Assembly (NCBI GenBank): GCA_037440825.1
Contig: JBBITJ010000001.1
Coordinates: 39,828-63,676 of the forward strand
Reading direction: 5' to 3'
DNA from: Candidatus Micrarchaeota archaeon
GTDB taxonomy: Archaea > Micrarchaeota > Micrarchaeia > Anstonellales > Bilamarchaeaceae
Length of the DNA: 23,849 bases
A program made the translations under genes and the position numbers. Shown here piece by piece: positions 14,308-17,243 of this stretch; position 1 is the first letter of the stretch, and each line of letters starts with the position of its first letter. Below the pieces are notes generated by a model, which had not been told where the DNA came from, searched no databases, and worked only from the letters and a program-made list of their open reading frames with translations.

Positions 14308-16203
14308 CTAGACGATCAGGCGGTCGCTCACGAGCTTCCCGAATGAAATGGGTTCGAAGGGCTTTGCCGCGGACTTCGCCTCGATCTCTGAAAGCACCTG
14401 CTCGAAAGCAAGTTCCTTCTTCTCTCCGGTCTCGCGCACCGTGACGGATAATTTGCCGCTCTCCATTTCCTTGTCGCCTATCACTGCGACGTAGGGGCAC
14501 CATTCCACTTCCCCTCTGCGTATCTTCTTTCCCAGCGTGTCGCCTGTGTCGTCCACGTCTATGCGCACCCGCCTTCCCTCTGCCTTCTTCTGCAGCTCCT
14601 TCGCGTACGCGAGGTGCTTCTCGCCTATGGGAATGAGGCGGAGCTGGGTGGGCGCGAGCCAGAGCGGGAATGCGCCTTTCTTGCCTTCCTTTATCCTCAT
14701 CGCCTCCTTTTCCAGAAGGGCGTAAACAACGCGCTCCAGGCTTCCGCTCAGGGACGCGTGGAGGATGTATGGGCGCTGCTTCTGCCCTTTCTCGTCAACG
14801 TAGTTTATGTCATAGGTATCTGCATTCTCCACGTCTATCTGCACAGTTCCGAGCGTGCTCGCCTTGTCCATCGCGTCTATGAAGTTGAACTCGAATTTCG
14901 TGATGAAGTAGGCGTAGCGCTCCTGGAACAATTCTATGAAGATCGGCTTGCCGATTTTCTTCACGAGCGAGACGTACCAGTCCTTGTTCTCGTTGAAGAA
15001 GTCCGCCTGCGCCCTGAACGCCACTTCTATCTGGTCGAAGCCCAGGTCTTTGTTCCATTCCAGCCCCTTGCCGAGCTGGCTGGCGAATTCCGTGCGCGCC
15101 TGCTCCATGCTTGCCACCATTGTGTGCATGTCCGGCATTGTGAATGCCCTGAGGCGCTTCAACCCTGCGAGCTCTCCGCCCTGCTCCCTCCTGAAAGAAT
15201 AGCGCGTGAGCTCGTATATCTTCATCGGAAGCTGCTTGTAGCTCAACGTGGAATCGTGGGAGATGAGGAACTGGCCGAAGCACGCGGCGAACCTCAGGAA
15301 GAACTTCTTCTCGTCCGAGATCACTACGTACTGCCTCGCAGGGAACCTGTTCAGGTACTTCTTGAGCGTGGGATGCTCTAAATCGTACATTATCGGAGTC
15401 TCGACCTCGTGTGCCCCGTAATTGATGCAGAAATCCGAGACTGCGCGCTCCAGTATCTTCTTCATCAGCCGTCCCTTGGGGTGCCACCTGAAGTTCCCTG
15501 AATCGCTTCCTGGCTCGTAGCCCACGAGCCCGTGCTCCATCATGAGCTTTATGTGCGGAGGCTCGACCTCGTACGAGCGCACCTTCTTCGTCTCGTAGAT
15601 GACCATCTTCTTGAGCCACGGGTATTTCGAGTAGTCGAATTTCTCGACGTCGTGCAGGTTTCCGTCCAGGTCCAGTATCTGGAACCTGCTCTTCATTTTT
15701 TCCTCGCTCTTAAGCGAAGCCGAGACCACTTCCTCCACTTTCGCCGGCTGCGGGGAGATGGGCGCCCCTTTCGCTTCTGATTCCAGCGCCGTTTTCAGCT
15801 CCCTGGAAAGCTCGCTCAGGGGGTGGCCCTTGCACTTGAGCGTATAGCCCTTGTACCAGCCGAAGGGCGAATGGTCGACGTTGTAGCCCATGGATTTGAG
15901 CTTCGCCTCGGTTTCGCGCACCACTTCGAGCGCCACTGCAGGGGAAGATGGCTTGGATGTGAGGTGCACCAGAGGATAAACCAGGACGTTCTGCGGCTTG
16001 ACCTGCTTCGCGACCTTGTCTATCTCCTCCGCGGCCTTTTTCGCGATCGCGTTGACGTCTTCGTCGCCCTGCTCCACGGATGTGAAGACTACGAGCACTT
16101 CCTCGTAGCGCTTCTTCTCCGGCTTGACCTCTTCCGCGGACTTGATCGCCTTCTGCTTCGGCTCCACTTCTATGTAGTCTGCGTGTATCGTCATTATTCG
16201 CAT
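14308..16203 (-). CDS. thrS: Threonine--tRNA ligase, archaeal type with N-terminal editing domain
   Basis: MRIMTIHADY, YP.VHL, PFGWYK...CKGHPLSELSR editing domain; LRFAACFGQF, FRREQ.GEL.GL.RLRAFTMPDMH, SG.SLER-type motif 3 region, PLWLAPTQ.R anticodon domain; SD GGTGA. Confidence 0.97.
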   Translation of the reverse strand: MRIMTIHADYIEVEPKQKAIKSAEEVKPEKKRYEEVLVVFTSVEQGDEDVNAIAKKAAEEIDKVAKQVKPQNVLVYPLVHLTSKPSSPAVALEVVRETEAKLKSMGYNVDHSPFGWYKGYTLKCKGHPLSELSRELKTALESEAKGAPISPQPAKVEEVVSASLKSEEKMKSRFQILDLDGNLHDVEKFDYSKYPWLKKMVIYETKKVRSYEVEPPHIKLMMEHGLVGYEPGSDSGNFRWHPKGRLMKKILERAVSDFCINYGAHEVETPIMYDLEHPTLKKYLNRFPARQYVVISDEKKFFLRFAACFGQFLISHDSTLSYKQLPMKIYELTRYSFRREQGGELAGLKRLRAFTMPDMHTMVASMEQARTEFASQLGKGLEWNKDLGFDQIEVAFRAQADFFNENKDWYVSLVKKIGKPIFIELFQERYAYFITKFEFNFIDAMDKASTLGTVQIDVENADTYDINYVDEKGQKQRPYILHASLSGSLERVVYALLEKEAMRIKEGKKGAFPLWLAPTQLRLIPIGEKHLAYAKELQKKAEGRRVRIDVDDTGDTLGKKIRRGEVEWCPYVAVIGDKEMESGKLSVTVRETGEKKELAFEQVLSEIEAKSAAKPFEPISFGKLVSDRLIV

Positions 16204-16302
16204 GTTTTCACCCTGGATGTTTTTTGCGGATTTTTTGAAAAGAACAGATATTCTTTTTTTCCGGATCGGGCGCGACCCGCCAAGCCGCGGCCGAAAGTAG
16301 AA
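16204..16302 (-). promoter_or_regulatory. Candidate attenuator region between the Thr leader and thrS
   Basis: GC hairpin CGGGTCG-CGCC-CGATCCG (16279-16262), and AU hairpin AAAAGAAT-ATCT-GTTCTTTT (16257-16238) containing a U-rich tract. Confidence 0.5.
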
Positions 16303-16359
16303 CTAGCAGGTGGTGGTCGTAGTGCCTCCGGTTGCGACTATTACGACGCTGGGATCCAT
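16303..16359 (-). CDS. Thr-rich leader peptide MDPSVVIVATGGTTTTTC (candidate threonine attenuator)
   Basis: 18 codons with 6 Thr, five consecutive (ACT ACG ACC ACC ACC). The stop is 99 nt upstream of thrS and the ATG is 29 nt from a TATA-like box. Confidence 0.85.
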   Translation of the reverse strand: MDPSVVIVATGGTTTTTC

Positions 16360-16380
16360 GGGTTAGCTATGGGAAATAAC

Positions 16381-16389
16381 ATTTTTAAT
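16381..16389. promoter_or_regulatory. AT-rich TATA-like element, probably shared by the divergent Thr leader/thrS and endonuclease IV genes
   Basis: ATTTTTAAT lies about 26-29 nt from both ATG 16359 (minus) and ATG 16410 (plus). Confidence 0.5.
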
Positions 16390-16409
16390 GCAAATGGAGA
16401 AGCCCACCT

Positions 16410-17243
16410 ATGATCCGTTTCGGGCCTGCAGGCATTCCCATCCAATGCGAAGGAAGCAGCACTGTTGAGGGACTAGAGTGCTGCAAAAGGCTCGGTCTGG
16501 GCGCGATGGAAATGGAGTTCGTGCGCGGAGTGAATATGAAGGACGACTCCGCGAAGGAAGCGGGCAAGAAGGCGAAGGAGCTGGGCATTTCGATTTCCTC
16601 GCATGCGCCGTATTACGTGAATTTGTGCACCGGAGATAGAGTAAAGGCGGAAAACAGCAAAAGGCACATTTTCCTCGCCGCGAAAGCCACGTTTCTCGCC
16701 AACGGCAAAATCACGGTTCTCCATCCTGGGTTTTATCAGAAATTGGCGAAAGAAGAGGCGTTCCAGGCTGCTAAAAAACGGCTTATTGAACTGAAGGAAA
16801 AAATAGACGAAGCGAAAATTAAGTGCATCCTCGGAATGGAGACCGTGGGGAAGAAAAGCGCATTCGGAGGGTTTGAAGAAAATGTAAGGATGGCGCAGGA
16901 ACTCGATTTCGTCAAGCCGGTATTGGATTTCGCGCACCTACACGCGAGAAGGGATTTCCTCATCAAGGGCGAGGACGATTACATTAGGATATTTTCAATT
17001 CTGGACAGGGAGCTTCCCGGGTATACGAAGGATATCCAGTGCCATTTCTCCGAGATAAACTATAGTGAAAAGGGGGAGCTGAACCATCTCGTGCTCGGAA
17101 GCAACAGCGAGCCGCCCTACAAACCGCTCATGAAGGTGCTGGCTGAAAACGGGATTGGCGGCACAATTATTTGCGAAACGCCGAAGCTGGATTTGGATGC
17201 GTTAGTTATGCAGAAGGAGTATGAAAAGCGGCTCAAAGCCTAG
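16410..17243 (+). CDS. Endonuclease IV-family TIM-barrel protein (AP endonuclease 2)
   Basis: FGPAG.P, E.EFVRG, HAPYYVNL, VLHPGFY, ETVGK, DFAHLHAR, HFSEI...GE..H, ICETP. Confidence 0.88.
   Translation: MIRFGPAGIPIQCEGSSTVEGLECCKRLGLGAMEMEFVRGVNMKDDSAKEAGKKAKELGISISSHAPYYVNLCTGDRVKAENSKRHIFLAAKATFLANGKITVLHPGFYQKLAKEEAFQAAKKRLIELKEKIDEAKIKCILGMETVGKKSAFGGFEENVRMAQELDFVKPVLDFAHLHARRDFLIKGEDDYIRIFSILDRELPGYTKDIQCHFSEINYSEKGELNHLVLGSNSEPPYKPLMKVLAENGIGGTIICETPKLDLDALVMQKEYEKRLKA

Follow-up and report, generated by a model that had tools for sequence, protein, structure and literature searches.

A conserved threonine-codon leader upstream of thrS in Micrarchaeota, a candidate ribosome-mediated threonine sensor

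In a 23,849-nt stretch of a Candidatus Micrarchaeota archaeon contig (the whole stretch is referred to here as the window), the threonyl-tRNA synthetase gene thrS is preceded by an 18-codon open reading frame (ORF) that ends in a run of five threonine codons, and a hairpin, termed P, follows this ORF. Our results indicate that the ORF is conserved in relatives and linked to thrS. Judged from conservation, synonymous variation and exclusive linkage to thrS, the sensor part of our interpretation, in which a translated Thr-codon leader would report on the supply of charged tRNA-Thr, is well supported. We further consider it probable, though not strongly so, that the leader acts as a ribosome-mediated threonine sensor controlling thrS in cis.

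A threonine-rich leader ORF precedes thrS

The features on which the analysis centres are the following.
16303..16359, minus strand: leader ORF encoding MDPSVVIVATGGTTTTTC, 18 codons plus TAG, read from the sequence and kept in relatives.
16309..16323, minus strand: run of five Thr codons, ACT ACG ACC ACC ACC, followed by TGC (16308-16306) and TAG (16305-16303).
14308..16203, minus strand: thrS, encoding an archaeal-type threonyl-tRNA synthetase (ThrRS) of 631 aa (Pfam PF08915, PF00587 and PF03129).

The leader ORF lies on the minus strand 99 nt upstream of thrS and reads ATG GAT CCC AGC GTC GTA ATA GTC GCA ACC GGA GGC ACT ACG ACC ACC ACC TGC TAG, exactly with the sequence and coordinates given in an initial annotation of this DNA. 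The mixture of ACT, ACG and ACC from which that annotation had argued for selection on the amino acid is also correct, and such selection is backed by the synonymous variation in relatives described below. The presence of thrS downstream was confirmed by the Pfam domains of its product, which comprise the archaea-specific editing domain (PF08915, 6.2e-46), the class II core and the anticodon-binding domain. Threonine accounts for 6 of the 18 leader codons, five of them consecutive and one more at codon 10, against a background of 3.5% of codons in the long frames of the genome. In the 875-kb assembly, the leader is the sole frame ending in a Thr run, Cys and a stop, and the sole one with five Thr before the stop. 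Because Thr is scarce in the genome and this ending is unique in the assembly, the run is more than chance would give. Among 12 candidate leader ORFs in the intergenic regions of the genome, this one alone precedes its cognate gene, and no other cognate leader ORF was found among them.

The leader ORF is conserved as coding sequence and linked to thrS

We compared thrS loci in 41 relatives first and then in the whole family, and 55 further upstream regions were added. The family sample comprised 99 genomes, 87 of which have thrS at E<=1e-100. A Thr-rich mini-ORF was found in 17 of the 99 genomes, belonging to 9 of the 23 genera, in a single copy each and always on the sense strand ahead of thrS; across these genomes the Thr run is kept with synonymous variation, the pattern that the initial annotation had proposed to look for. 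Outside the family set, the mini-ORF also occurs in a metagenome contig (L043) and in a genome of another order, Norongarragalinales (L232), whose ThrRS is 54% identical. In the wider archaea, a Thr-run mini-ORF within 400 nt upstream of thrS was found once in 78 loci, and this was again L232.

The leaders fall into two architectures. Type I, that of the window, is found in 6 of the 8 genomes of the genus, in L043 and in L232, and its peptides are MDPSVVIVATGGTTTTTC, MENRPATYFAAARTTTTC, MNCRQVLPEAVAATTATTC, MYTGSFGSIGSTGNTTTC, MYGGSFGSIGSTGNTTTC, MPKAKSTKRITETTTY and MPIATTTTTRSF. Type II is found in eight other genera, where 0.4-2.5 kb and other ORFs lie between the mini-ORF and thrS; its peptides include MASKDSGITTTTTC, MSVQDSGITTTC, MVFIKDLETTTTC, MSISKDLTKTTTC and MIMGYLELTRTTETTTC, with MNYTGLAIGTTC, MSIGNWKNKTRTCTTC, MKLGLTTKTN and MSSLDLRMVTGTAC as weaker members. 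Across all 18 related mini-ORFs, the last 9 codons hold 2-6 Thr. Even between species whose ThrRS proteins are 86-88% identical, no alignment is possible over the first, N-terminal two thirds of the peptide. What survives this divergence is the ATG, an ORF length of 16-19 codons within the genus, a Thr run, a Cys codon (in one case Tyr) and a stop. The conserved end varies synonymously among relatives, with ACA, ACC, ACG and ACT for Thr, TGC and TGT for Cys, and TAA, TAG and TGA as stops. In addition, two species of one genus (G020 and G114) differ by an in-frame 6-nt indel, with five Thr in one and three in the other. Synonymous variation and an in-frame indel are predicted by selection on the reading frame and not by selection on a nucleotide motif, and they therefore point to the former.

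The linkage to thrS was examined by several scans. In 85 thrS loci of the family and order, mini-ORFs with TTT in the last 8 residues and lying up to 1.6 kb upstream were found at 10 loci in sense versus none in antisense, whereas the same scan gave 14 sense versus 8 antisense loci for Ser and 12 versus 16 for Leu; one additional variant, ending in TTATTC before the stop, was found by eye in G005. A DNA pattern of three ACN codons, TGY, T-R-R and TT had 22 matches in 176 genomes of the order, compared with 11 for the reversed control, and 13 of the matches had a real stop, 9 of them upstream of thrS and 4 in unrelated contexts. A covariance model of the type I leader (R1) gave one match of 70-83 bits in each of its six training genomes, with the next best match in the 99 genomes at 24 bits. 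The corresponding type II model (R2) gave 9 matches at E<=2.4e-5. Its two non-training matches, in G104 and G044, are followed on their own strand by the thrS N-terminus at distances of 592 and 639 nt, and of its weaker matches those in G103 and G076 proved real on inspection and those in G017 and G080 false.

A covarying hairpin follows the type I leader ORF

Three structural elements were delineated downstream of the leader ORF in the window.
16268..16292, minus strand: hairpin P, with a 9-bp stem and the 7-nt loop UUGGCGG, found by covariation and RNAalifold.
16275..16282, minus strand: 3' strand of candidate helix A, pairing with 16304-16311.
16238..16257, minus strand: A/U hairpin with the arms AAAAGAAU and GUUCUUUU, present in all predicted folds of the window leader.

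Hairpin P is well supported by covariation. In the seven type I sequences, 93.4% of the alignment cells of its stem are paired, against 76.6% in shuffles and 28-44% in slid controls; 5 of its 9 pairs have been altered on both sides, and its covariation of 0.54 compares with 0.205 in shuffles, none of 500 reaching the observed value. The loop follows the consensus YYGGCRR, and the closing C-G and G.U pairs are invariant in 7/7 sequences. P was also the sole consensus helix returned by RNAalifold on the leaders. The expectation of a conserved stem in the initial annotation thus holds in so far as a covarying hairpin exists at 16292-16268, but the hairpin that it had drawn, at 16279-16262, is not the conserved one.

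Helix A would pair the end of the ORF, from the last Thr codon through the Cys codon and 2 nt into the stop, with the P loop and the two nt that open the 3' arm of P. Its cells are paired in 91.1% of cases against 21-39% in slid controls, its covariation of 0.274 compares with 0.199 in shuffles, 6 of 500 reaching the observed value, and one pair changes from C-G to U-A in 3 sequences. As this helix was derived from the same seven sequences on which it was then scored, these values are suggestive only of a real helix. Helix A and P have two bases in common and would therefore compete at least partly.

The second hairpin with a U-rich arm noted in the initial annotation is present at 16257-16238, and its 3' arm is the U-rich tract UUCUUUU (16244-16238). 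In the 5 genomes of the genus that were tabulated, a T-run of at least 4 lies 52-66 nt after the stop, and a T-rich tract stands behind the hairpin in L007. This U-rich tract is a candidate archaeal termination or processing site. It lies 23 nt beyond P, within the arm of the A/U hairpin, and the leader has no GC hairpin with an abutting U-run.

Type II leaders have a candidate alternative pairing

In type II leaders, a segment 1 located in the ORF just 5' of the Thr codons (e.g. CAAGGAUUUAG) pairs with a segment 2 (CUAAAUCCUUG) located 11-14 nt after the stop, and segment 2 can alternatively pair with a segment 3 beyond a U5-U7 tract. The 1:2 duplex reaches -14 to -19 kcal/mol versus -5 to -9 kcal/mol for shuffles in 5/6 leaders, and the 2:3 duplex is better than at least 96% of shuffles, also in 5/6 leaders; the stems include G.U pairs. 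No 3:4 terminator helix was found in type II leaders. This alternative pairing brings type II closer to the textbook attenuator than type I.

The leader ORF is probably leaderless and thrS may be an internal cistron

The surroundings of the leader ORF and of the thrS start contain the following elements.
16382..16388: TATA-like box TTAAAAA (minus-strand reading), apparently common to the leader ORF and the nfo-like gene.
16410..17243, plus strand: nfo-like gene of the xylose-isomerase-like TIM barrel/AP endonuclease 2 family (PF01261, 1.1e-26), the divergent neighbour.
16208..16213, minus strand: Shine-Dalgarno (SD)-like GGGTGA, 4 nt before the thrS ATG.

The box lies 22 nt from the leader ATG (16359), and its 8-mer lies 21 nt from the ATG of the nfo-like gene (16410). 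The 22-nt spacing from box to leader ATG is identical in 6 genomes of the genus, in L043 and in L232, and G002, L043 and L232 retain the ORF with this spacing where no nfo adjoins it. In 5/6 genomes of the genus, the nfo ATG and the leader ATG are 50-51 nt apart with a single box midway. In archaeal promoters, the TATA box is centred ~26 nt before the transcription start. By this distance, if the box is the promoter, as its position suggests, the leader and nfo transcripts would both be leaderless; the leader mini-ORF is thus probably leaderless, and 16360-16409 resembles a compact promoter that serves both directions and yields two leaderless transcripts.

The thrS gene itself has an SD of the GGTG(A/G) type 4-9 nt before its start in 6/7 type I leaders, the seventh, G007, having GAGGCTGA instead, and thrS lies between 26 and ~170 nt beyond the A/U hairpin, depending on the leader. 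Since thrS retains an SD and this distance is variable, the arrangement fits a thrS that is an internal cistron of a transcript starting at the mini-ORF.

Proposed mechanism of threonine sensing

We propose that transcription starts at or adjoining the leader AUG (16359) and that the 18 codons are then translated. Under a shortage of charged tRNA-Thr, a ribosome would stall at codons 13-17, whereas with an ample supply it would reach the UAG and depart. The position of the ribosome would set the fate of the downstream leader, that is of P and of the A/U hairpin with its U-tract, and hence the output of thrS. By analogy with pheST and T-boxes, starvation would correspond to the ON state, with more ThrRS being made.

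For the effector step we prefer premature termination or 3' cleavage at the U-tract, which is a possible, if doubtful, assignment; termination there would be relieved when the stalled ribosome blocks the formation of helix A between the ORF end and the P loop. Two other effectors, each of them unlikely, are control at the level of thrS translation and a ribosome stalled near the 5' end that shields the leaderless mRNA against 5'-3' decay. According to parts of three reports, archaeal termination relies on U-tracts recognised by aCPSF1/FttA and not on hairpins (PMC8716108, PMC7515710, PMC11616081). In its full form, our proposal would be an archaeal version of ribosome-mediated attenuation, in which a leaderless, Thr-tipped mini-ORF reports tRNA-Thr charging to thrS by gating termination or cleavage of the U-tract/aCPSF1 (FttA) type, or 5'-3' decay, via hairpin pairing with the last codons of the ORF, and which has been kept and remodelled in at least two orders of Micrarchaeota; as a whole, this formulation is tentative and, in our judgement, quite possible.

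Several observations weigh against threonine sensing by this leader, or against particular steps of it. The element is missing from 82/99 family genomes, including 2 of the 8 in the genus. In the largest genus the TTT scan found it in 0/30 loci; two members were found later by the models, and most genomes of that genus are without the element. Some members are down to two Thr codons, with endings such as GTTC and VTGTAC before the stop. With regard to promoter direction, the A-rich motif resembling a transcription factor B (TFB) recognition element (BRE) is, in our reading, better in the nfo direction than in the leader direction. The U-tract of the window, UUCUUUU, is short, and AT-rich intergenic DNA commonly contains T-rich tracts; a downstream T-tract was found for 181/910 ORFs in sense versus 158/910 in antisense, so that the terminator signature is not separated from background in this genome.

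The remaining points against the mechanism concern the RNA fold, and here the initial annotation did not hold up. It had proposed that the Thr-codon segment pairs either upstream or downstream, a ribosome stalled for lack of charged tRNA switching between the two. Its upstream pairing of GTCGTA with TACGAC is present in the window (fraction 0.22 versus shuffles) and has no counterpart in relatives; pairing of this kind is no better than shuffles in 7/7 leaders (fractions 0.18-0.88), and the two mutually exclusive pairings are neither conserved nor better than shuffled controls. ORF-to-downstream duplexes in the genus likewise do no better than shuffles (fractions 0.095-0.815). Folds made with and without a masked ribosome footprint, placed on the Thr codons or on the stop, show no consistent switch, P remaining intact in every state in 4/6 species. 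The 186-nt leader folds no better than its shuffles (z -1.31; 20/200 shuffles as good), and overall fold stability is significant on neither strand. Moreover, P begins 10 nt (extended stem) to 13 nt (core stem) past the stop, where a Thr-stalled ribosome would not reach it, and this makes the geometry awkward for a simple masking model. For type II, covariation of the 1:2 columns is not significant on a MAFFT alignment (154/500 shuffles as high); the type II segments are conserved on both sides, and column covariation is therefore weak. Of the initial interpretation, therefore, the translated Thr-codon leader as a sensor of tRNA supply is kept, on the grounds of conservation, synonymous variation and thrS linkage, and the folding switch is not supported.

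Alternative explanations

The invariance of the P loop invites a different explanation, namely that the leader is an RNA operator bound by a protein, either ThrRS as in E. coli thrS or another factor, with P as the binding site and the Thr codons incidental or kept for pairing with the loop. The YYGGCRR loop and the two closing pairs are invariant in 7/7 while the remaining stem covaries, and this invariance extends to the genome of another order with a ThrRS of 54% identity; the 7-nt loop has, in our reading, the outline of an anticodon loop, and helix A would explain why the end of the ORF (final Thr codon, Cys codon and stop) is conserved as nucleotides. However, the loop triplet is GGC in 7/7 and not the NGU of tRNA-Thr anticodons, and P lies 55-230 nt from the thrS SD, where direct occlusion is impossible. 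The pairing with the loop covers only ~8 nt and leaves the further 2-4 Thr codons, the synonymous variation and the ATG-TATA spacing unexplained, and an operator does not explain the Thr-run ORFs of other genera, which are without the P loop. We therefore regard an operator of this kind as quite unlikely.

It is likewise quite unlikely that the ORF is an independent small gene, or a bidirectional by-product of the nfo promoter, with its own terminator formed by P and the U-tract, while thrS is transcribed from a promoter of its own and the product is a peptide or nothing. The single TATA box placed symmetrically between nfo and the ORF in 5/6 genomes of the genus would suit such a by-product, but G002, L043 and L232 retain the ORF and the 22-nt spacing without nfo alongside. 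The AT-rich stretch between the hairpins and thrS could house a promoter, but it lies at no fixed distance from thrS, which moreover retains its SD. The 0.4-2.5 kb and the other ORFs that separate mini-ORF and thrS in other genera agree with an independent gene, yet the exclusive association with thrS in 9 genera and two architectures would then be left unexplained, and a peptide conserved only in its Thr run and Cys does not evolve as a functional micro-protein would.

Finally, it is highly improbable that the conserved repeats are DNA promoter or operator sites for a transcription factor, such as the product of the small helix-turn-helix-like ORF between mini-ORF and thrS in other genera: direct repeats of CGTGACAAAC do adjoin the TATA box there, and segments 1, 2 and 3 of type II are near-palindromic and conserved on both sides, but the stems P and 2:3 have G.U pairs, whose counterparts on the opposite DNA strand would be A.C mismatches, the sequence of stem P differs wholly between species while still pairing, which is ill-suited to an operator recognised by a protein, and the window genus has no such regulator gene in the locus. 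For the type II segments, given the non-significant covariation of the 1:2 columns, a DNA-level role is conceivable.

Relation to known leader systems

Leader-peptide attenuation is a textbook bacterial mechanism that requires coupled transcription and translation, and bacterial attenuators of this kind include E. coli pheST with its pheM leader and the thr operon leader thrL (Rfam RF00506). Like thrL and pheM, the leader described here has a short ORF rich in codons for the amino acid of the downstream gene, with RNA structure directly after it, and its presumed signal is a ribosome stalled by lack of charged tRNA. Unlike them, it belongs to an archaeal host with a TATA/TFB promoter and an apparently leaderless ORF, it is without a GC hairpin and abutting U-tract, and no terminator/antiterminator pair was demonstrated in the window genus. 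In the 16100-16500 region, the enterobacterial RF00506 Thr_leader was the sole Rfam match at E<=10, at 16236-16341 on the minus strand, and its 15.7 bits (E = 2) fall short of the gathering threshold of 55 bits. A scan for bacterial-type promoters and terminators gave nothing relevant, with no intrinsic terminator on the minus strand of 15900-16700.

The available portion of another report describes mycobacterial polycysteine leaderless short ORFs, in which a sensory codon run opens the mRNA, operonic genes follow, and output depends on ribosome pausing (10.1101/834739). To the extent covered by that portion, the leader of the window is similar in being an apparently leaderless sensory short ORF with a run of one amino acid (10.1101/834739); it differs in host domain and in the class of gene regulated. 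We also considered whether the Thr run serves as an anti-SD that pairs with the SD of thrS, as in the mycobacterial model, and rejected this, as the duplexes are no better than shuffles in 7/7 leaders (fractions 0.14-0.96). With no intrinsic terminator, an Rfam score below threshold and no duplex sequestering the ribosome-binding site, the leader is a member of neither the thrL/pheM nor the polycysteine class.

E. coli thrS is subject to autogenous translational repression via a mimic of tRNA-Thr, and Bacillus thrS is controlled by a T-box. The same gene would be controlled through its 5' leader RNA here. An operator of the E. coli type was rejected because the P loop has GGC in 7/7 in place of a Thr anticodon and the hairpin lies at least 55 nt from the SD. 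A T-box riboswitch was also rejected: the Rfam T-box model had no match in the window at gathering score, and a cut-off of E<=10 over 16100-16500 gave none either.

Other features of the thrS loci

The intergenic region between thrS and the nfo-like gene has no tRNA by ARAGORN and no Rfam family at gathering score; the matches at gathering score in the window are two tRNAs, both outside the leader region. In the window, the leader ORF is in frame with thrS, the UAG at 16305-16303 being the sole stop between them, and the resulting open frame has 664 codons. Stop-codon readthrough into thrS was nevertheless rejected as an explanation, since the leaders of relatives, at 155, 283, 178 and 269 nt, are out of frame, and that of G001, although in frame, has an earlier in-frame stop and an open frame of 655 codons. 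As the frame relation is lost in relatives, it is taken as coincidence.

Additional short ORFs were noted between leader and thrS. In L002 (G004) and L005 (G001), ~100 nt extra between the A/U hairpin and thrS house strong hairpins along with another short ORF, which ends in a UGA located within the thrS SD (GGGUGA); this suggests translational coupling with thrS. In L002, CAUGUUUUC is able to pair with the thrS start region GAAAACAUG. Among type II loci, L010, L112, L015, L017 and L028 have a second mini-ORF (M..KGCLETQ before the stop) behind a GAGGTGA SD, between leader and thrS. This second mini-ORF contains the invariant GGGTGTTTAGAAAC, which resembles the 5' part of the Thr leader ORF (..KDLETTTTC). 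A frame without its own start codon begins right after the TAG inside GGGTGTTTAGAAAC; it is conserved and, by eye, helix-turn-helix-like (..GRK.ALS.EQ...VSRM.IWR..), and +1 recoding may take place at GGGTGTTTAGAAAC. Direct repeats of CGTGACA(A/C)AC precede the type II leader in L017, L028, L198, L214, L216 and L219, one of which abuts the TATA box with the other ~20 nt farther upstream; they may represent a BRE and a transcription-factor site.

The thrS gene is apparently split in several genera of the family (G008, G017, G049, G065, G083, G100, G103 and G111), where one stretch matches the editing domain (residues 1 to ~140) and another, separate stretch the catalytic part (residue ~152 onwards). 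In two of these genomes, G100 and G103, the leader is upstream of the editing-domain part or farther upstream on the same strand. G007 carries, besides the orthologue, a second, distant thrS-like gene with 37% identity (G007:C91:71-1960). In the G000 assembly, which is 95.6% complete, ARAGORN found no tRNA-Thr, calling 24 tRNAs without intron search and 45 with it.

Significance

A full-text literature search, which did not extend to subscription-only papers, found no archaeal leader-peptide attenuator, including in the available parts of PMC2965389, PMC7261190 and PMC8116511. The conserved, thrS-specific Thr-codon leader of Micrarchaeota offers a concrete and testable archaeal case. Its two architectures, with a short GC hairpin here and a three-segment alternative fold elsewhere, are natural variants through which the mechanism could be dissected. 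If the proposed mechanism is true, ribosome-based amino-acid sensing would be present in the archaeal domain, it would operate on leaderless mRNAs, and it would be wired to a eukaryote-like transcription machinery, possibly via U-tract/aCPSF1 termination. Genome-reduced DPANN archaea would then regulate a core translation gene in cis.

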